In this document: piece after piece, positions 6,474-62,295 of the stretch
How positions within the stretch are numbered: position 1 is the first letter of the stretch
Layout: the number at the start of each line of letters is the position of its first letter
Source of the DNA: Raja brachyura
Taxonomy: Eukaryota
Direction: 5' to 3'
NCBI GenBank assembly: GCA_963514005.1
Contig: OY740808.1
Coordinates: 2,170,001-2,234,000 of the forward strand
DNA: 64,000 bases
The notes under the pieces: generated by a model
Told to the model about the DNA's origin: nothing
Database searches by the model: none
Seen by the model: the letters and a program-made list of their open reading frames with translations, nothing else
Position numbers and translations under genes: made by a program

Positions 6474-7009
6474 ATCTCCACCAATTTGAGGAAGGACATC
6501 CTTGTGATTGAGGCAGTGCAGCATAGGTTCACGAGATTGATCCCTGGTATAGCGGGACTGTCATATGAGGAAAGATTGAAAAGACTAGGCTTGTATTCAC
6601 TGGAGTTTGAAAGGATGAGGGGATATCTTATAGAAACATATAAAATTATAAAAGGACTGGACAAGCTAGATGCAGGTAAAATGTTCCCAATGTTGGGTGA
6701 GTCCAGAACCAGAGGCCACAGTCTTAGAATAAAGGGGAGGTCATAAAAGACTGAGCTAAGAAAAAAACTTTTTTACCCAGAGAGTTGTGAATTTATGGAA
6801 TTCCCTGCCACAGAGGGCAGTGGAGGCCCAATCACTGGATGGATTTAAGAGAGAGTTGGATAGAGCTCTAGGGGCTAGTGGAGTCAAGGGATATGGGGAG
6901 AAGGCAGGCACGGGTTATTGATAGCGGACGATCAGCCATGATCACAATGAATGGCGGTGCTGGCTTTAAGGGCCGAATGGCCTCCTGCACATATTTCTAT
7001 GTTTCTATG
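6474..7009 (+). mobile_element. 5'-truncated CR1 LINE (RT C-terminus and 3' UTR)
   Basis: ORF 6486-6746 RFTRLIPG..LSYEERL..LGLYSLE..RGHS; ends in (TTTCTATG)n tail. Confidence 0.9.
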
Positions 7010-7059
7010 CTAATATTTGGTAATATCTGTTTAATTATTTTTTATCTGATTGAGTCATA

Positions 7060-7285
7060 TAGCATTGAAATGTGATTTTAGGCACACAGTATACATATAT
7101 CAACAGGTCAAGGACTGATGTGGTTTGTCAACCCCATACAACCTGCACATCTTTAAGATGTTGGAGGAAATGCACATGGACATAGGGCGAATGTGCAATC
7201 TCCATATCCAGAGCACTGAAGCAAAGATTGAACCCAGGTTGCTAGAGCTATGAGGCATCTGCTTGACTAACTACACCACTCTTTA
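7060..7285 (-). mobile_element. Degenerate tRNA-derived V-SINE
   Basis: Similar to the minus-strand SINEs at 51780-52298 and 61335-61600 (gattgaacccaggttgctagagctatgaggca..ctacaccact). Confidence 0.55.
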
Positions 7286-7840
7286 TGATTCTCCACATGT
7301 CCTGCTACTGCATCTTTAGCAATTTAGGACTTTTTGCTTTTCTATTGTTGATAAGAATTTATTAAAATAATTGGGTGGTTTTTGCTTACCCTTGGGCATA
7401 CTTTTGCCAACACCTTCCTACCCCCTCTTTATTGGCTTTACTGTGAGTTGAAGACTTACGTTTCAAACTAAAGCATCATTTTCACATTTCTGGCTGTCTT
7501 GTGGCAAAACATAAACTGCTGGAAGAACTCGGTGGCCCAAGCAACCTTAGATGTTCCTCCTTAGGAGGCGAAAGGATAGTCAATGTTTTAGGTTGAGAAC
7601 CAGTATCAGTCCTTGACCTGTTGAGTTCTTCCAGCAATGCATCTGTTGCTCCAGGTTTCTGTGCTGCAGGCTCTTGTGGCTCTATGGTTGTTTTGTAATC
7701 ACCTTTCTATGGAAAGCATCGTGCTGCAACATTGCTAATTAACACAAGCTTATTATACAGAACCATATCTAAAATGGATCATTTCCAGGCTCTTCCAGGA
7801 AGTTGTGTCCTATGATACTTTCTATGAAGTTATTTTGCTT

Positions 7841-8723
7841 GGAGGCTGCAGGGTGATTTGGATAGGCTGAGTGAATGGGCAGATGCATGGCAGATGCAGT
7901 ACAATGTGGATAAATGTGAGGTTATCCACTTTGGTGGCAAAAACATGAGGGTAGACTATTATCTGAATGGTGGCAGATTAGGTAACGGGGAGATGCAACG
8001 AGACCTGGGTGTCATGGTACACCAGTCATTGAAAGTAGGCATGCAGGTGCAGCAGGCAGTGAAGAAAGCAAATGGTATGTTAGCATTCATAGCGAAAGGA
8101 TTTGAGTATAGGAGCAGGGAGGTTCTACTGCAGTTGTACAGGGTTTTGGTGAGGCCACACCTGGAGTACTGCGTACAGTTTTGGTCTCCAAATCTGAGGA
8201 AAGACATCCTTGCCATAGAGGGGGTACAGAGAAGATTCACCAGACTGATTCCTGGGATGTCAGGACTTTCATATGAGGAAAGATTGGATAGACTCGGTTT
8301 GTACTCGATGGAATTTAGAAGATTGAGGGGGGATCTTATAGAAACCTACAAAATTCTTAAGGGGTTGGACAAGCTAGATGCTGGAAGATTGTTCCCGATG
8401 TTGGGGGAGTCCAGAACAAGGGGTCACAGTCTAAGGATAAGGGGGAATTCCTTTAGGACCGAAATGAGGAAAACATTCTTTACACAGAGAGTGGTGAGTC
8501 TCTGGAATTCTCTGCCACAGAAGGTAGTTGAGGCCAGTTCATTGGCTATATTTAAGAGGGTGTTAGATGTGGCACTTGTGGCTAAAGGGATCAGGGGGTA
8601 TGGAGAGAAGGCAGGTACGGGATACTGAGTTGGATGATCAGCCATGATCACATTGAATGGCGGTGCAGGCTCGAAGGGCCGAATGGCCTACTCCTGCACC
8701 TATTTTCTATGTTTCTATGTTTC
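7841..8723 (+). mobile_element. Young 5'-truncated CR1 LINE; uninterrupted RT C-terminal frame 7858-8628
   Basis: WQMQYNVDKCEVIHFG, LVRPHLEYCVQFWSP, FFTQRVV.LWNSLP motifs; (TTTCTATG)n tail. Confidence 0.95.
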
Positions 8724-10916
8724 CAAATTTACGTTTGCAATTTAATTTTCCCAAACTGAGGATCAAGTCCCTTATTATTTAGCATAGGTCAAAATTGTGC
8801 TGGTTGAAAGAAATTTCCTGGGTCAACTATTTGGCCCAGTCTTGGACTTCCATTCATTTGCAGCTGATCTTGGAAGGGTTCAGTGTTCTGAAGGTCAGAT
8901 GCATCCGACTGCCCACACAGCCTACTGCACCTCGGCAGGCCCACTACCCAATGGCTCACTGTAAAAAATAAAAATAAAAAAAATCTTGATGCACTTTGCA
9001 TCAGTTACTTAGCTTTTGGCAGTCAGGGCCAACATACAAAGAGAAATCCTATTATTTGAATATGACTCCACACAGGTAGCTCCCAAGGTCGGGTCAAACT
9101 CCAATTGCGGGAATTGTGTAAAAGCAGCACCATTAATGATAAAACATTAATGATAAAACACCGTTGATCAAGCATGTGAACCAACAAAATACCAGATCAA
9201 AGTACCATTATCCATTGTTATCTCTTATCTCCATGTTCTGATACTACTTCCAGGCTATTGGTCATTTGATTTACCATCTCCATTTGGCACAGTTTATTTT
9301 GTTTAACTGTGCACCCATTAAGAACCCTAGAATGTTTTTCAACATTAAAGGGACTGTATAAATCTTTACAAGTACAAGTTGAGATAATTATGCAGTAGTG
9401 CCATTACTTATATTCATGGTCTGCTCCATTATTCTATTATTGATATCGATATTTTTAATTTGCGCTCTCCTCTCCCAAATGGAGGTTCGGATTTGTCTCT
9501 TTGTGAAGCACATCTAAAGCAGCTCAGAACATTGTATACTATGGGTGGAAGTTCATATTAGCTTGAGTATTTGCTTGTTTCAGTTTGGTTTGTGCAACAT
9601 CCAATATAAACATGTAAGTTAATGGACTTCCCCAATTTGCCTCTGCTGGCATCCACACTTGACTGCTTTGTAATTTTTTAGATATGATTATTTTAGGCTG
9701 AAATCAAGCTAGCTTTACTTTCAAATATTATATTGTGGAAAGCCACAACACTCAATCTTTCCACCCAAAATTAAATTATTCCAGCCCAATTAAATTCAGA
9801 AAGGAAAATAATCATTCATTTTTTGATCAAATACAGTTTTGCACAGTAAAGTATCATCTGTTGTACTAACAAATGAACTACACCATTTACTTTAGCACCA
9901 CAGCATGAAATTAATAGAGAATAATTCCTCTTTCTCTAGAAATGAGTTCTTAGCATGTTTAGAAGTTAAAGGTGTGTTAAATAGAATCCTAGAAAATTCA
10001 TGTCACAGATTGTCACTCAACCTGATGTATTTGTACAGGCTGAAAAAGAGTTTAGTAATAAAGGTTGTCATCGGCAATCCATCCACTAGCTTGTTCTGAC
10101 ATTAATCTAACCAATCATCATGTCTTCTTGTGATGCCACTTTTTTAACTTTCTGTTTACAATTTTTAATTATTATTTTATCTCTTGTCCCTCACTCAATC
10201 TCTTCTCTCTCGCTCCTTTCCAAGACATCTCTCAAACTAAGCTGTATTTTGTTTCTTTTTTTGAGATAAAGCCTATGTCTACACAAATTACTGAATTTTG
10301 TACTCTAGAACCTGGGCCCTGTGTTACTTTCTTTAGCTGTGTTTGTAAGTGTGAATCAAATGTGATACCATTTGTACAGTGTATTTAACTGCTGTTATTA
10401 GTTGCTTCTTAACTTTAACCATTTACCGTTTCCAATGTAGATTTTCACTATAGAATTACTAAATAGACCAGAGAGTGCAACATCTTACTGATATTTAACT
10501 GTAAATAAGCTGTCCAACCTAACCCTTAATTATCTTTCAGAATGTTAAAATACTACGGTAAAAAGAAATATGCTAGAACAGACTCCTTTGTCCAGTATTG
10601 ATAATTCCAAATCATTAAAGTAATTAACTAATCACATTTAAAATGTATTCCTGCCCCACCTCTCGCCAATAAATAAAATGCAGTATAAAATGCAGCATCA
10701 AGCAGTATTCAATGATGCTGAATTCTCAAAAATATAATTTTACCATTTATGATAAGATTTGTGAAATTCGTTTTTATAGAATTAATACACTCTTTTAATA
10801 TGCAGTGGAAATATCACTGTTTTATCTTATAGATAATTTGTATATATTTGCAATTTTATTGTTATGAGTTAGGGTTTGTGAAACATGTTAACTAATTATC
10901 AACTTTTCTTTTGTAG

Positions 10917-12099: not shown

Positions 12100-12372
12100 A
12101 ATGGCTGGTGGAGCTGCTGGCTCACAGCACCAGATACCTGGTTTGTTCCTGACCTCGGGTGCTGGCTCTGGAGTATGTGCATTCTCTCGTTGACCATCAA
12201 GGATTCTTCTGGGTGCTCTGGTATCCCCTCACATTCCAAAGACGTGCAGGTTTGGAGGTTAATTGCCTGCCCTCTAAATTGCCCCTAATGTGTAGGGAGA
12301 AAGTGGCATAACATAGAACTTGTGTGAATGGGTGATTGCCTGCGGTGTGGACTCGTGGCATGCCCTATCTAT
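12100..12372 (+). mobile_element. tRNA-derived V-SINE
   Basis: gagctgctggctcacagcaccagatacctggtttgttcctgacctcggg head and gggtgctctggt..cacattccaaagacgtgcagg core. Confidence 0.75.
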
Positions 12373-28539: not shown

Positions 28540-28560
28540 TGACAATAGAGAATGCAGATA

Positions 28561-29740
28561 TAGAAACATAGAAATTAGGTGCTGGAGTAGGCCATTCGGC
28601 CCTTCGAGCCTGCACCGCCGTTCAATATGATCATGGCTGATCATCCAACTCAGTATCCCATACCTGCCTTCTCTCCATACCCTCTGATCCCCTTGTCCAC
28701 AAGGGCCACATCTAACTCCCTCTTAAATATAGCCAATGAACTGGCCTCAACTACCCTCTGTGGCAGAGAGTTCCAGAGACTCACCACTCTCTGTGTGAAA
28801 AAAGTATTTCTCATCTCGGTCTTAAAGGATTTCCCCCTTATCCTTAAGCTGTGACCCCTTGTCCTGGACTTCCCCAACATCGGGAACAATCTTCCTGCAT
28901 CTAGCCTGTCCAACCCCTTAAGAATTTGAAAGTTTCTATAAGATCCCTTCTCAAACTCCTAAATTCTAGAGAGTATAAATCAAGCCTATCCAGTCTTTCT
29001 TCATAAGACAGTCCTGACATCCCAGGAATCAGTCTGGTGAACCTTCTCTGCACTCCCTCTATGGCAAGAATGTCCTTCCTCAGATTTAGAGACCAAAACT
29101 GTACGCAATACTCCAGATGTGGCCTCACCAAGACCCTGTACAACTGAAGTAGAACCTCCCTGCTCCTATACTCAAATCCTTTTGCTATGAAAGCTAACAT
29201 ACCATTCGCTTTCTTCACTGCCTGCTGCACCTGCATGCCTACTTTCAATGACTGGTGTACCATGACACCCAGGTCTCGCTGCATCTCCCCTTTTCCTAAT
29301 CGGCCACCATTTAGATAATAGTCTGCTTTCCTGTTTTTGCCACCAAAGTGGATAACCTCACATTCATCCACATTATACTGCATCTGCCAAACATTTGCCC
29401 ACTCACCCAGCCTATCCAAGTTACCTTGCAGTCTCCTAGCATCCTCCTCACAGCTAACACTGCCCCCCAGCTTAGTGTCATCCGTAAACTTGGAGATATT
29501 GCCTTCAATTCCCTCATCCAGATCATTAATATATATTGTAAATAGCTGGGGTCCCAGCACTGAGCCTTGCGGTACCCCACTAATCACTGCCTGCCATTGT
29601 GAAAACGACTCGTTTACTCCTCCTCTTTGCTTCCTGTTTGCCAGCCAGTTCTCTATCCACATCAATACTGAACCCCCAATGCCGTATGCTTTAAGTTTGT
29701 ATACTAATCTCTTATGTGGGACCTTGTCGACAGCCTTCTA
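28561..29740 (-). mobile_element. Young 5'-truncated CR1 LINE with one frameshift near 28925
   Basis: ORFs 28901-29665 and 28650-28913 are consecutive RT parts; nearly identical to the 7841-8723 copy. Confidence 0.95.
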
Positions 29741-48167: not shown

Positions 48168-49679
48168 CTTCTATGCATCTTTCCTTTACTCCGTATTGAG
48201 TTCAGTAATTTTGGATTCAGCATTTTCAACATCTGCATTCACAACTGTTTAATTCCAACCTGCATTGCAGCAATTTATGTTACTAATTTTTGTCAATAAT
48301 TTGACTTCTTCCACTTTCACATCCTCTGTACTTTTCTTTGTCTTTCAACTTGTCCTGTTCTCATCCTGTATTGCCATCATCTCTCCTGCCTTCAATCCAA
48401 TCTCTTCTTTCTATCCTTGCCATTTCCCACTTCCTCGCAAACACAGAGTTTGCTTAATCTGCAACTTTCACCAGGTCCTGGATCCTAAGCCAGTCCCTGA
48501 TCAGCTTCCCTCTCCTTAACTCTACTTGACTGCACGGTATTGCCAGCATTTCCTATTTTCATTCAGCATCTGTAATATTTTTGCTTTCGTGTTTGCATTA
48601 GTACTTCCAGATTAACACTGACATATTCAGCTGTAGAGTAAAACTCTGGCTCGAAAGGGCTTAGCTATTTTATATCAAGGTCACATTTAGTTCTAAATTA
48701 CGTTGCCAATTATTGCAGGATTATAGAACCTTACAGCAGAGAAAGACATCTTTGTACAAGGTTTGAAAAGGTTTGCCAGTTTGTCTCTGCTCCAGTCCCT
48801 GCCTTGTCAGTTTGCAAATCTTCATGTCTACATCTATTTCCTCTCATGTCCCTAATCATCCCTTTGCTTTTATTTTGCCAATTATTTTGCCTTTGCTGTT
48901 GCTGTGAGATTCTTCCTGTTAGGGATAGGACTGAGACTGAGCGAACCACTCTCCCACCATCGCATCACTTTGTTTCATCACATCAGTCTCAAACAGAATT
49001 GAAAGACACCAAAGGCAGAGGCTGACTCTGTCCCAGAGCCAGAATTAGTTCCTCCACCGACAACAATGTAATTGAACAGGGAAAACAGAGCTATCCACAA
49101 TTTGGACATCAGATTTTGAGAGTCTGCAAACTGATTGTTTGGTATTGATCGCAGTGCATTAAGAATCATTTAATGCATGAACTGCACAGTCTTCCACACA
49201 CCCATGGGCCCCACTAGAAATACATTTCAGATAAAATCTAAATTACAATCTTTTGTCAGTGATTTGTACTCAGCTGTACAAAGGAGAACTTGTGTTGAGC
49301 AGGTAAACGTGATATGAACAATGAAAGGGCGCCAATGATCACAATTGCTGCTCTATTGCGGGGTATTGATGACATGACATGGTTCTCCTGCTGAGAATAC
49401 CTCATTGTAAAATTATATATTTTTGAGCACTGCAATGACGTGAATATTGTTATCTGATACTGTACCAAGCTTCAATATTGACCAGGGCTTTTTATTATCC
49501 GAGTTGTAAACAGAATTGTATCAGCTCAACTGTTAGGAAAATATGCAACTCCTGGCTGGTTGGAGGGCAGGTTATTGTAGACACATTGAACATGGCAGGA
49601 CCTGCCCTGGCAACTCACCCACTGATGACCAGGCGCTGAGGTACAGCCACAAACACATTTCTTTGTGCTGTGTATCATT

Positions 49680-50074
49680 TAGAAACTTACAAAATTCTTA
49701 AGGGGTTGGACAGGATAGATGCAGGAAGATTGTTCCCGATGTTAGGGGAAGTCCAGAACAAGGAATCACAGTTTAAGGATAAGGGGGAAGTCTTTTAGGA
49801 CCGAGATGAGAAAAACATTTTTCACACAGAGAGTGGTGAATCTGTGGAATTCTCTGCCACAGAAGGTAGCTGAGGCCAGTTCATTGGCTGTATTTAAGAG
49901 GGAGTTAGATGTGGCCCTTGTGGCTAGAGGGATCAGGGGGTATGGAGAGAAGGCAGGTACGGGATACCGAGTTGAACTGCCATTGAATATGATCAGCCAT
50001 GATCATATTGAATGGCAGTGCAGGCTCGAAGGGCCGAATGGCCCAATCCTGCACCTATTTTCTATGTTTCTATG
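49680..50074 (+). mobile_element. CR1 LINE 3' fragment (young subfamily)
   Basis: Close match to 8340-8720; (TTTCTATG)n tail. Confidence 0.92.
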
Positions 50075-53293: not shown

Positions 53294-53630
53294 CCAGGAT
53301 CATATTGAGTAAGTGCTGCCTTTAAGATGCCCTATCATCACGGCACAAACATTACGGGCCGAAGGGCCGGCTCCTGTGCTGTATTTTCTGTGTTCTAATG
53401 GAAACCCACACGGTCACTGGTAGAATGTGCCAACTTCACACAGGCAGCACCCAAGGTCAGGATCAAACCGTGAGGCAGTGGCTTCTCTGCACAGTGTAAG
53501 CTGGAGCGCTCCCAGACTTCTGAAAGTATTCGAGGTGAATAATAAATGTTGGGTTTGCCAACTTGGCCAACATCATGAAAAACTGGATTTTAAAAATCAA
53601 TCCCTGGCAGGCAGCACTTTTGGGGCGGTC

Positions 53631-53938
53631 CAGGACAAGGGGGTCACAGCTTAAGGATAAGGGGGAAATCCTTTAGGACTGAGGTGAGAAGGACTTTTTT
53701 CACCCAGAGAGTGGTGGGTCTCTGGAACTCTCTGCCACAGAGGGCAGTTGAGGCCAGTTCATTGGCTATATTTAAGAGGGAGTTAGATGTGGCCCTTGTG
53801 GCTAAGGGGATCAGAGGGTATGGAGAGAAGACAGGTATGGGATACTGAGTTGGATGATCAGCCATGATCATATTGAATGGCGGTGCGGGCTCGAAGGGCC
53901 GAATGGCCTACTCCTGCACCTAATTTGTATGTTTCTAA
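53631..53938 (+). mobile_element. CR1 LINE 3' fragment
   Basis: Matches 8412-8720. Confidence 0.9.
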
Positions 53939-53984
53939 TTACAAGTTCTTTTTCTGCCTGAATGCCCCTGTCAACAGACTCAGT

Positions 53985-54857
53985 AGACAATAGGTGCAGG
54001 ATAGGCCATTCGGCCCTTTGAGCCAGTACCACCATTCAATGTGATCATGACTGATCATCCCCAATCAGTACCCCATTCCTGCCTTTTCCCCATATCCCCT
54101 GACTCCGCTATCTTTAAGAGCCCTATCTAGCTCTCTCTTGAAAGTATCCAGAGAACCGGCCTCCACCGCCCTCGGAGGCAGAGAAATCCACAGACTCACA
54201 ACTCTCTGTGAGAAAAAGTGTGCCTCGTCTCCGTTCTAAATGGCTTACCCTTTACTCTTAAACTGTGGCCCCTGGTTCTGGACTCCCCCAACATTGGGAA
54301 CCTGTTTCCTGCATCTAGCGTGTCCAAACCCTTAATACTCTTATATGTTTCAATAAGATTCCCTCTCATCCTTCTAAACTCCAGAATATACAAGCCCAGC
54401 CACTCTATTCTCTCAGCATATGACAGTCCCGCCATCCTGGGAATTAACCTTGTAAACCTACGCTGCACTCCCTCAATAGCAAGAATGTCCTTCCTCAAAT
54501 GAGGGGACCAAAACTGCACACAATTCTCCAGGTGTGGTCTCACTAGGGCCCTGTACAACTGCAGAAGGACCTCTTTTCTCCAATACTCAACTCCTCTGGT
54601 TATAAAGGCCAACATGCCATTCACTTTCTTCACTGCCTGCTGTACCTGCCTGCTTACTTTCATTGACTGATGAACAAGGTCCCCCCAGATCCCGTTGAAC
54701 TTCCCCTTTTCCCAACTGGACATCATTTAGATAGTAATCTGCCTTACTCTTTTTGCTACCAAAGTTGACAACCTCACATTTATCCCCATTAAACTGCACC
54801 TGTCATGCATCTGCCCACTCACCCAACCTGTCCAATTCACCTTGCATTCTCATAGCA
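53985..54857 (-). mobile_element. CR1 LINE 3' part
   Basis: Minus ORFs 54196-54726 and 54587-54799 carry RT C-terminal motifs. Confidence 0.92.
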
Positions 54858-55599
54858 ATTGAAAACTCCAATTGAAAACGTGCATCTCCCATCAACGAGT
54901 TGCTCAGTAGCACTGACGAAGGTGGAAACCACATACCTGATCCTCCATTTAAACAGAACACGGCCAGTTCAATGTCGGAGGGGGAACCCGTCCACGTCAC
55001 CTCATCGCTACACAACTTCAATACTCCAAGTCGATGCCAATAAAACACTAACAATTACATCCTCTCCACTGGAAAGACAGCAAACTGGGAGCAGGAGAAG
55101 GCCATTTGACCTTTCTAGCCTTCTTCCCTGTTCAATATCATAAGAGCATTAGTGATAGGAGTAAAATTAGGCCATTTGGCCCATCAAGTCTACTCCACCA
55201 TTCAATCATGGCTAATCTATCTCTCCCTCCTAACCCCAATCTCCTGCCTTCTTCCCATAACCTCTGACATCCGTACTAATCAAGAAATAAACATTCAATC
55301 GTGTTGTCCAACTCTGTCCAGGCTGATTCTTTGGACCAGTGACTGACCAGAGCTGAGAGGTTCAATCACGACGTAGCAAAATATTTATTGCCGATAGTCT
55401 GCTTCAACTCCATAATCCCAACAAACTAAAGTCAAACCCCCTGGATCTAGACCTCCGCCTGACCCACTGACCACAAGCAGTGAGGATAGGCATCAGAAAA
55501 TCCTCTACAATCATTCTCAACAAGGATGAGTTCTCAGCCCAGAGTCTAGACTTACAACTGTGCAGCCAAATTCTCCTTTTACAAGTTTGCAGATTGATG

Positions 55600-56468: not shown

Positions 56469-56522
56469 GGGGTGGGAGATTGCAACTTCCACGTGGTCCG
56501 CCCTGTTTCAACGAATGCAATC
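56469..56522 (+). ncRNA. Predicted minimal HDV-like self-cleaving ribozyme
   Basis: P1 GGGGTGG/CCGCCCT with leading G-U, P2 GATTGCA/TGCAATC, P3 ACT/GGT, L3 TCCACGT, J4/2 CGAA, in canonical nested double-pseudoknot order. Confidence 0.7.
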
Positions 56523-56595
56523 AACCTGGCGTGTACAATCAAATAGAACAAGTTGTCCAACGACTTTAGGCTGTGCACACCATACGCAAGAGAAA
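56469..56595 (+). mobile_element. Short non-autonomous retroelement with (AAG)n-like tail
   Basis: TSD ACTGCA(T/A)AGCAT at 56457-56468 and 56596-56607; homologous to the 61979-62111 copy. Confidence 0.8.
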
Positions 56596-58779: not shown

Positions 58780-59040
58780 GAGGGCCCGAGCTTGGCGGCT
58801 GACCGCGACATGACATCCTCCTCTCCCTCGGGTGTTGTTTTCATGGACCTCTTCGTCGACACCGGGCGTCTGTGGAGGGAGAGTTATTCCCCATTCACAC
58901 GCCGCCCGCCCGCCCGCCCGCGGCCTCTCCCCGGGGCCTGTGGCCGAGGCCTCGCTCCCGCCCGCCGGGAGCGTCTCCATGGCAACGCCCCCACCTGCCT
59001 CTCCCCGTCGCCCAGGCCCGTCACCCGGGCAACGTATCCT
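58780..59040. promoter_or_regulatory. CpG-rich promoter-like segment with RFX X-box and GC boxes
   Basis: High CpG density; GTCTCCATGGCAAC at 58973-58986; (CCCG)n GC boxes near 58903-58920. Confidence 0.6.
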
Positions 59041-59076
59041 CCCTGACACTGAACCCCCCCCCCCCCCCCCCCGGCA

Positions 59077-59942
59077 ACCTGCCTCACCCTCTCTGTCCAC
59101 CTGCCCCCCACCCTCTGTCCACCTGCCCCCCACCCTCTCTGTCCACCTGCCTCACCCCCTCTGTCCACCTGCCTCACCCCCTCTGTCCTCTGCCCCACCC
59201 TCTGTCCACCTGCCTCACCCCCTCTGTCCACCTGCCTCACCCCCTCTGTCCTCTGCCCCACCCTCTGTCCACCTGCCCCCACCCTCTGTCCACCTGCCTC
59301 ACCCTCTCTGTCCACCTGCCCCCACCCTCTGTCCACCTGCCCCACCCCCTCTGTCCACCTGCCCCCACCCTCTGTCCACCTGCCCCCCACCCTCTCTGTC
59401 CACCTGCCTCCCACCCTCTCTGTCCACCTGCCTCACCCTCTCTGTCCACCTGCCCCCACCCTCTGTCCACCTGCCCCACCCCCTCTGTCCACCTGCCCCC
59501 ACCCTCTGTCCACCTGCCCCCCACCCTCTCTGTCCACCTGCCTCACCCCTCTGTCCACCTGCCCCCACCCTCTGTCCACCTGCCCCACCCCCTCTGTCCA
59601 CCTGCCCCCACCCTCTGTCCACCTGCCCCCCACCCTCTCTGTCCACCTGCCTCACCCTCTCTGTCCCCTGCCCCCACCCTCTGTCCACCTGCCTCACCCC
59701 TCTGTCCACCTGCCCCCACCCTCTGTCCACCTGCCTCACCCTCTCTGTCTAACTGCCCCCACCCTCTGTCCACCTGGCTCACCCCCTCTGTCCACCTGCC
59801 TCACCATCTCTGTCCACCTGCCCCCAACCCTCTCTGTCCACCTGCCCCCAACCCTCTCTGTCCACCTGCCCCACCCTCTGCCACCTGCCCCCCACCCTCT
59901 CTGTCCACCTGCCCCCCACCGTCTCTGTCCACTGCCCTGTCC
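59077..59942. repeat. C-rich minisatellite, ~21-24 bp unit CCACCTGCC(C/T)C(C)ACCC(TC)TCTGT
   Basis: Roughly 38 tandem variant units read directly. Confidence 0.95.
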
Positions 59943-60829
59943 CTTCTGTCACCTGGGTACAACCCCATCATTTTCCCTCTCGCCTCCTGTCCCCCACTCT
60001 CTGTTCCCTACCCCCTTATCCACCACCACCACCCCACCCCTTACCCCTCCCACACTATCCTCCCCCTCCCTCCCCCATTCATTTTCCTCCCTCCCCGATG
60101 ATGCTCCATCCACAGCTCCCGTCCCACACGTTCAGCTGCAGCCAACTGTCTCTGAGTTGCAGTCACCACTGGGTCTGACCTCCTGCAGCCGCCGTTAGGA
60201 ATGTTTGTGTGAGAACGACCAGAGGAAGCTCTTTCTTCTTTCTATCTCACAGCTTGAGGTTAGTGTTGGAGCAGGCACTGATTGTCTGCATGTGGGAATG
60301 AGAAAGATCCTTTCAATGTTATTTGTGGCTGATCTTGGCTCCAGTTTTGCTGAAGGAGTCAAAGTCTCTCCAATTCAGCCTGGAAATTGGTTATCTTCTT
60401 TGAATCTCAGTGCAGATGTTGGACCAGACTGGGCTGTTTGTTCCACCAAGGTCCCCTCCTCCTTGGCAGCTGCCTCCCACTTTCACCTGACCAGCCTGTG
60501 ACCTTCACCCATCCATGTGAGAACGCTAAGTTGTTCTGTCTGTTCTTGGCAGTTTTGGACCAAGTCTCCAGTCCCCACTATCCACCCACCCACCCTCAAC
60601 ATCCCTTGTGTCTCTTAGTCTGCTGCCTCCCCAATAAAGTCTAGACTTCACCACTCGGGACCTGATTCATCTGAAGTGTTGCCCAAACCAAATGCTATCT
60701 CTGCGTGTGAGTGAACACCCATGCCTGGAAGTGATTTCAGGCTTGGCTAATGACGGCTATCAGTTGTTGGATCCCTGCTCCATCCTGTCTTTCCAAACCT
60801 CACTTGGGGCTCGCAAGGATGCTGCAGCA

Positions 60830-61334: not shown

Positions 61335-61600
61335 AGTTTAGTTTAGTTTAGATATACAGAGCGGGTACAGGCCCTTCGGTCTACTGAGTCCGTGCCGACC
61401 AGCAATCCCCGCACACTAACACTATCGTACACACACTGGGGACAATTTACAACCAGACCAAGCCATTTAGCCTATAAAGCTGTACGTCTTTGGAGTGTGG
61501 AAGAAAACCGGAGATCCCGGAGAAAACCCACACGGTCACGGGGAGAACCTACAAACTCCGCACAGACAGCATCTGTGGTCAGTCTCTGGCAGCAACTTTA
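61335..61600 (-). mobile_element. V-SINE
   Basis: (AGTTT)n tail, gtacgtctttggagtgtgg..aaccggagatcccggagaaaacccacacggtcacggggagaac core. Confidence 0.8.
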
Positions 61601-61869: not shown

Positions 61870-62295
61870 GGGTGGCACAGTGGCCCAGCGGATAGAGCTG
61901 CTGCCTCACAGTGCCAGAGTCCCCGATTCCATCCTGACCTCTAGTGCTGTCTGTGTGGAGTTTGCACGTTCTCCTTGTCTTCTTCTTGCATATGGCATGC
62001 ACAGCCTAAGGTTGTGGGTCAACCTATTTGATCTATTTGTTTTGTGCACGTCGGGTTGATTCCATTAGTGGAAACAGGGTGGACAACGTGAAGGTTGCAA
62101 TCCCCCAGCCCGTTCTCCTTGTGACCACGCGGGTTTCCTCCGGGTGCTCCGATTTCCTCCCGCATCCCAAAGACATGCTGGTTTGTAGGTTAATTGGCAT
62201 CTGTAAATTGCCCTTAGTGTGCAGGGAGTGGATGAGAAAGTGAGGTTACAGAACTAGTGTTGACAGATGATCGCTGGTCGGCGTGGACTCGGTGG
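61870..62295 (+). mobile_element. V-SINE interrupted by a short retroelement
   Basis: tRNA-like head ggcacagtggcccagcgg..gattccatcc; V core resumes after 62111. Confidence 0.8.
61979..62111 (-). mobile_element. Second copy of the HDV-ribozyme-headed short retroelement
   Basis: 12-bp TSD CGTTCTCCTTGT (61967-61978, 62111-62122); tail CAAGAAGAAG on the minus strand. Confidence 0.8.

Follow-up and report, generated by a model that had tools for sequence, protein, structure and literature searches.

A 137-nt repeat headed by a predicted HDV-like ribozyme, probably an internally deleted Ingi/Vingi-type LINE

The element and its host in the window

The window (the whole stretch of DNA that was analysed, 64,000 nt) contains a 133-nt element on the minus strand, inserted into a SINE-like host, and a second copy of the same element on the plus strand (Table 1). 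The first 54 nt of the element can be laid out as a minimal HDV-like ribozyme. Direct reading of the minus-strand letters from 62111 to 62058 agreed with the ribozyme segments written out in an earlier note on this DNA, which had also stated that both copies begin with the same G (hereafter G1) and that the 61979 copy is bounded by a 12-bp target-site duplication. Both statements are correct; the final base of the duplication is G1 itself, which leaves 11 bp that are unambiguous. The 61979 copy has one mismatch in each of P1 (C-C), P2 (G-G) and P3 (C-U), and the C and AA of J4/2 are conserved (CUAA here, CGAA in the 56469 copy), all as described before. Pair 5 of P1 is U-A in the 61979 copy and U-G in the 56469 copy. 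The two copies are 80% identical to each other, and the 61979 copy diverges by 6.8% from the family majority described below.

Table 1. Positions of the element, its predicted ribozyme parts and its surroundings (window coordinates unless given as genome-wide loci).
Feature	Position	Strand	Remarks
Interrupted host SINE	61870..62295	+	tRNA A-box-like motif at 61881
Target-site duplication, left	61967..61978	+	
Target-site duplication, right	62111..62122	+	62111 shared with G1
Whole element, decayed copy	61979..62111	-	133 nt (family 137 nt); probable non-autonomous, internally deleted Ingi/Vingi-type LINE derivative
Part from parent LINE 5' end (nt 1-80)	62031..62111	-	alignment to L236
Part from parent LINE 3' end	61979..62022	-	last codons (LDLQL-stop), 3' arm, terminal motif, GAA tail
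Minimal HDV-like ribozyme fold, predicted	62058..62111	-	54 nt from G1 (62111); three stem mismatches
P1 5' strand	62105..62111	-	position 4 G to C
P2 5' strand	62096..62102	-	
P3-L3-P3 hairpin	62083..62095	-	L3 = UUCACGU; single P3 mismatch
P1 3' strand	62076..62082	-	
P1.1 G and P4 of ~6 nt	62069..62075	-	pairs assigned by analogy with HDV-like ribozymes
J4/2 CUAA	62065..62068	-	presumed catalytic C at 62068
P2 3' strand	62058..62064	-	one mismatch
5' arm of predicted 5'-3' pairing	62043..62051	-	
3' arm of predicted 5'-3' pairing	61996-62003	-	
Second copy in window, older variant	56469..56595	+	P1 U-G, J4/2 CGAA, all stems paired
Other Vingi-type families	L061-L088, L111, L114, L118, L120, L129-L139		genome-wide loci

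The earlier note considered the 61979 copy to be probably dead, and the sequence bears this out. In addition to the three stem mismatches, its P2 3' strand can pair with the P4 remnant (U-UUCC-A in this copy, U-UUCG-A in the family majority) to give a competing 5-bp hairpin in minimum free energy prediction. Two changes in this copy create that hairpin, adding to the case for a decayed insertion that is probably inactive. An HDV-like structure descriptor run on both strands of the window gave a single perfect match, the 56469 copy; the 61979 copy satisfies it only when three mismatches are allowed, and six resampled sequences of 64 kb gave none. Rfam returned no match at gathering level in the whole window and two chance matches at E<=10 on the 61979 copy. 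A PDB sequence search was likewise negative.

An uninterrupted relative of the host at 12111-12355 aligns colinearly with both host flanks, running through the insertion point (71% over 257 nt), so the nesting is genuine and the 61979 copy is younger than its host, as had been proposed. The host is indeed a multicopy SINE-like repeat; the more specific name V-SINE is our presumption from its central motif. ARAGORN detected no tRNA in the region of the host and the element. Relatives of the host occur in the window at 12111-12355 (+), 61432-61582 (-) and 53400-53463 (-). The window also contains a C-rich minisatellite with units of 19-24 nt (59000-59990), a short repeat found at 398-443 and in 12 other places (13 copies counting one strand, with additional ones on the opposite strand), and numerous LINE-like 3' fragments (6483-8725, 28553-29441, 49674-50073 and 53620-54858), which we take to be of CR1/L2 type.

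The repeat family and its parent LINE

A search of the genome for the family gave 2273 candidates, the best 40 of which were scored, and a majority sequence of 137 nt was built from 30-31 copies. Every position of P1, P2 and P3 is paired in this majority, including the three pairs that are broken in the 61979 copy, so the fold survives the first of the two refuting conditions set in the note. In contrast to the single-copy CPEB3-intron ribozyme of mammals, the element is a dispersed repeat: the intact 54-nt core is present in 118 exact copies and a 27-nt stretch of the 3' part in 343. Combined with a mean divergence of 5.6% (22/30 copies), these counts give by simple arithmetic a family of ~1,600-2,700 copies. 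As an unbiased sample, 30 of the 343 copies were picked by their 3' part alone. Twenty of them start at position 1, 24 within the first three positions and 27 within the first six, the remaining three being further truncated; all pairs and core bases are intact in just eight. An exact duplication of at least 8 nt was found at 40 of 60 loci (a few loci are repeated in this set), and in 28 of the 40 it ends at or shares G1. The element begins at the G1 of its LINE (see below) and has no Pol III head, nor was any tRNA found in it.

Several further observations concern individual copies and other genomes. The target duplication often ends in T (20/30 in L031-L060, 11/24 in L260-L289), so that read-through transcripts would carry a U at position -1. 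In L276, two changes in P1 turn G-C into U-A and keep the pair, which may be due to chance. One copy (L122:1700-1837) lies within a Vingi-type LINE of family F and is therefore younger than that LINE. Sequencing runs from six organisms contain at least half of the sampled family words; in the contigs of the four runs examined, which come from other organisms, family sequence gives way to unrelated flanks at the same two termini, and the older variant with U-G and CGAA is dominant. No RNA data were listed among the sequencing runs matching the family.

The 3' part of the element reads in one frame as the end of a LINE open reading frame. A pattern requiring the final Trp codon of this frame before the shared tail gave 47 matches and none in the control, and the first 20 of the 47 all extend upstream into LINE coding sequence and have the tail in common. 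The proteins of these parent loci comprise RT and, at the C terminus, a Cys/His motif, and end in WMSTLDLQL-stop. A full-length parent copy, L236, has the same G1, a short 5' UTR, APE, RT, the Cys/His motif and the tail; it is bounded by a 12-bp duplication and interrupted by frameshifts and a CR1/L2-type insert. In the short element, nt 1-80 of the parent are joined to its last ~44 nt through a 13-nt linker. It is bipartite: internal deletion has brought the two termini of a single LINE together, within a target duplication. The same parent has given rise to another, independent deletion form in which nt 1-95 are retained (L035, L045 and L050).

The pieces of L236 and its closest full-length relative, P0190 (1019 aa, 60-67% identity), indicate a single ORF with APE followed by RT. 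Full-length relatives are ~1000 aa long and contain APE and RT; no RNase H was found in Pfam scans of P0190, P0300, P0124 and P0323. In this respect, and in its internal deletions, the system resembles Vingi LINEs and their derivatives (PMC5786205; PMC13708176), Vingi being defined as a single-ORF LINE with APE and RT but no RNase H (PMC13708176). In a quick tree, the parent grouped with arthropod elements, outside the branch containing families A-G and an Anolis protein, which we infer to be Vingi; identity between the parent and the Anolis protein is only 39-41%. As named references for Vingi, Ingi and RTE were absent from this tree, we use the name Ingi/Vingi-type. RTE, a guess made from the tail, was ruled out as the parent because the parent protein groups with the Ingi/Vingi-type set in this tree, which included no named RTE. 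The parent was missed by protein searches that started from families A and I; two of these searches scored the best 150 of 2533 and of 5202 candidates.

We put the probability of our overall reading, in which the 137-nt element arose by internal deletion from an Ingi/Vingi-type LINE, retains only the two ends that the parent protein needs and is mobilised as in the model given below, at about 0.8. Ribozymes have been described on LINEs of the Ingi clade and on derivatives of these that carry deletions (PMC4035085, PMC6765202, PMC8256844, PMC5786205), as have bipartite Vingi derivatives (PMC5786205; PMC4494074). The closest parallels are NARTc, RIME and SIDER, which arose from L1Tc/ingi by internal deletion and carry the Pr77 HDV-like ribozyme (PMC4035085). 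Like these, our element is short and non-coding, combines both ends of a LINE of the Ingi group and has an HDV-like fold at its exact 5' end. Unlike them, it resides in an animal genome, has a 54-nt fold almost without P4 and a GAA tail, and derives from a parent without RNase H; its ribozyme is a prediction from sequence.

Sister families and the CPEB3 ribozyme

The genome contains at least seven other Vingi-type families, each headed by its own HDV-like fold. Searching all 2.7 Gb with RF00622, the Rfam model of the CPEB3 ribozyme, gave 58 matches among the best 59 of 137,320 candidates, with E-values down to 1e-14. At least 32 of the 59 that were scored exceeded the cut-off of 35 bits, the top score being 65.8 bits; none of 14 control genomes had a match over the cut-off. 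The matches that we inspected are the 5' ends of other Vingi-type LINE families, and none comes from the 137-nt family. Families A (65.8 bits), G (60), E (53.7) and H (34-37) exceed the cut-off, D (26-28) and C (24) score lower, and family B gives no match. A copy of family A, L069, continues into APE and RT. Family H has a tiny P4 like the 137-nt family and forms a bridge between that family and the CPEB3-like ones.

The majority of family G (five of six copies, L135 being left out) agrees by eye with 56 of the 62 RF00622 consensus positions outside the L4 loop. P4 is identical at 14/14 positions and P2 at 12/14, the difference being one compensatory pair. Family G is rare, with seven matches and just four in a wider pattern search, and the link to its ORF comes from a single deleted copy together with several inverted ones.

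Two observations on related repeats may be added. Family H (L082-L088, L237-L254) is itself a bipartite element of ~150-190 nt in which P1 is mostly 6 bp long. A very abundant related LINE family (L145, L148, L156-L185; 5202 candidates) has a similar terminal motif, and at one of its 5' ends a decayed fold can be seen in which P3 is again ACC/GGU.

The CPEB3 ribozyme has been described as having no outgroup. Judged from these sequences, the sister families suggest that it is an exapted Vingi 5' end. Identity in stems that otherwise vary freely would favour common descent, and the landing of a LINE 5' end in an intron would account for the direction of transfer. We consider it rather probable that the insertion took place before the marsupial-placental split, that the families found here are the missing outgroups, and that Ingi/Vingi-type RNAs are generally released by a 5' HDV-like ribozyme and looped at their ends. 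The alternative would be that the constraints of the HDV fold have produced the likeness by convergence, independently of shared ancestry. The motif is short (67 nt), its G-rich P1 and loops are constrained, the matches are the best of 2.7 Gb, and the comparison is of the ribozyme by itself (no CPEB3 flanking sequence was found in the main text of PMC10919898). Against this stand the identities in P4 and P2 of family G, stems that vary freely among the families of this genome, the E-values per genome and the clean control genomes. Moreover, only six of ~60 positions are reported to be invariant in HDV-like ribozymes (PMC8256844). Given this evidence, we regard convergence as unlikely.

We found no publication that ties the CPEB3 ribozyme to Vingi, although Ruminski 2011, Webb 2009 and Kojima 2011 and their supplements may contain such elements; Vingi is not named among the ribozyme-bearing clades in the available part of PMC5786205. 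In our reading, the ribozyme of the 137-nt family belongs to a single radiation of Ingi/Vingi-type 5' ribozymes, at the end distant from CPEB3, while close counterparts of the CPEB3 ribozyme lie on other branches.

The predicted fold and a proposed looping of the RNA

The family majority and the 118 exact copies of the core can form the nested double pseudoknot of P1, P2, P3 and P1.1 with the correct helix lengths, and the G1 wobble, the L3 core and the C of J4/2 are those of HDV-like ribozymes. The earlier note had taken the U-A/U-G difference in P1 as support for this fold. The difference is real, but it is a one-sided change between subfamilies and hence weak support. Strong support for the predicted fold comes from covariation across families. 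In 14 sequences of eight families, 89.6% of cells pair, compared with 68.7% after shuffling and 37.5-49% in slid controls, and both sides change in 13 of 18 stem pairs; the control is uncorrected for relatedness, and five of the 14 rows are partly out of register. Compensatory changes within the family are rare (3 of 24 pairs). The best Rfam match of an intact copy covers exactly the 54 nt and is RF02682, the F. prausnitzii HDV-like ribozyme (17.5 bits, E 0.29); this is far below the gathering score of 44 bits, and there was no other relevant match. RNAalifold, whose model excludes pseudoknots, favours a competing nested fold in the 5' half.

P4 is nearly absent from the fold. Such a reduced or missing P4 and an ACC/GGU P3 are shared with minimal HDV-like and theta ribozymes and RF02682, and P4-less HDV-like ribozymes cleave in vitro (PMC10879173). 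Those reported are ~99% phage-borne and often tRNA-linked (PMC10879173), whereas here they head an animal retroelement with thousands of copies. We infer that the 54-nt head of the element is a self-cleaving HDV-like ribozyme that cuts 5' of G1.

The main role of the head might instead be that of an internal promoter or a binding site for protein, the fold being a non-cleaving relic and transcription starting at G1. Pr77 of L1Tc combines promoter and ribozyme roles (PMC8256844), a fixed start at G1 would be expected from an internal promoter of this kind (PMC8256844; PMC3383444), and the low Rfam score and the alternative folds fit a relic. A relic would not, however, be expected to retain all stems, the C-G pair of P1.1, the G1-U wobble and C-N-A-A in J4/2, as the majority does, or to keep the fold while its stem sequences are almost wholly unlike those of the sister families. 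Together with the cleavage by P4-less ribozymes cited above, this makes a mere promoter quite improbable, and we retain the self-cleaving ribozyme as our reading of the head, whose bases may in addition have a promoter role.

Each family shows complementarity between the bases that follow its ribozyme and those that precede its terminal motif. We had spotted this complementarity by eye before subjecting it to a permutation test, in which fixed windows of 30 and 36 nt and one decayed copy per end were used; families D, I and J, for which one end is missing, were excluded. The cognate 5'-3' assignment of the seven families has the lowest summed energy of all 5040 permutations. Individually, the cognate partner ranks first in only four of the seven families, and second, third and fourth in the others.

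Inverted insertions point in the same direction. Six of 47 parent loci (L193, L194, L201, L205, L210 and L216) contain an inverted parent segment adjoining a 3' fragment of 60-430 nt. All six segments come from nt 1-107, one of them reaching position 1; a seventh, weaker inversion was also seen, and the rest of the parent reference contributed no inversion at the 47 loci. Inversions of this kind were also seen in families A and G, and further loci with inverted 5' ends are L064, L067, L074, L075 and L081. Inversions of LINE insertions have been explained by a twin-priming model. Their confinement to nt 1-107 suggests a looped template with the 5' end beside the 3' end, and we think that the ends of the element's RNA would loop together in this way.

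These findings can be combined in a model. A copy would be transcribed, probably by read-through from host promoters given that there is no Pol III head. The ribozyme would then cut 5' of G1 and release an RNA with an exact 5' end, and pairing of the post-ribozyme stretch with the pre-tail stretch would loop this RNA. The APE-RT protein of the parent would bind it in trans and nick the target, and reverse transcription from the GAA tail would leave a duplication of 8-14 bp. Inversions would arise when the second strand is primed on the RNA, its 5' end lying beside the 3' end, and synthesis stops at G1.

It remains to consider the claim of the earlier note that this family is itself a mobile reservoir of CPEB3-like ribozymes. 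As claimed, the RF00622 consensus has exactly the same L3 and CCCU-GU junction, and the family shares with the CPEB3 ribozyme its topology, a 7-nt L3, a single-pair P1.1 and C-N-A-A in J4/2 (RF00622; PMC8233481). However, all stems differ, P4 is missing and the element is multicopy and mobile. RF00622 matched neither the intact copy (E<=10, cut-off 35 bits) nor the 5' end of the parent (E<=1), and the Rfam comparison asked for in the note places CPEB3 no higher than other HDV-like motifs, RF02682 being the best. By eye, the P3-L3-P3 hairpin agrees at 11/13 positions with F. prausnitzii and at 9/13 with CPEB3. No RF00622 match and a closer RF02682 mean that the CPEB3 claim fails for this family. 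That the family lies near the source of the mammalian motif is largely refuted and has hardly any probability left: the shared L3 and junction, and the CGAA of the older variant, are outweighed by the lack of a model match, by 26/49 agreeing core positions (by eye, from the consensus lines) against 42/48 for family G, by an L3 that recurs in families A, E and H, and by a parent in a protein branch separate from the CPEB3-like families. What stands of the reservoir is a mobile HDV-like family, and sister families that do match RF00622. As far as sequence comparison can tell, the earlier claim is wrong for this family and right in spirit for its sisters.

Taken alone, the 61979 copy is an ordinary dead insertion, and its interest lies in the family context. 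The sister families provide candidates of ~90% identity that make the origin of the CPEB3 ribozyme testable; a Vingi fossil, X12_LINE, is present in the human genome (PMC5753468). Two families with P4-less HDV-like folds head animal retroelements here, compared with the mostly phage-borne examples reported. Work is under way to use Vingi-1 as a gene-insertion tool, with a donor RNA that carries both UTRs (PMC13708176). If our model is true, a self-cleaving fold at the 5' end and pairing between the 5' and 3' ends would explain why Vingi-1 needs both UTRs, and why this group of LINEs yields bipartite derivatives.
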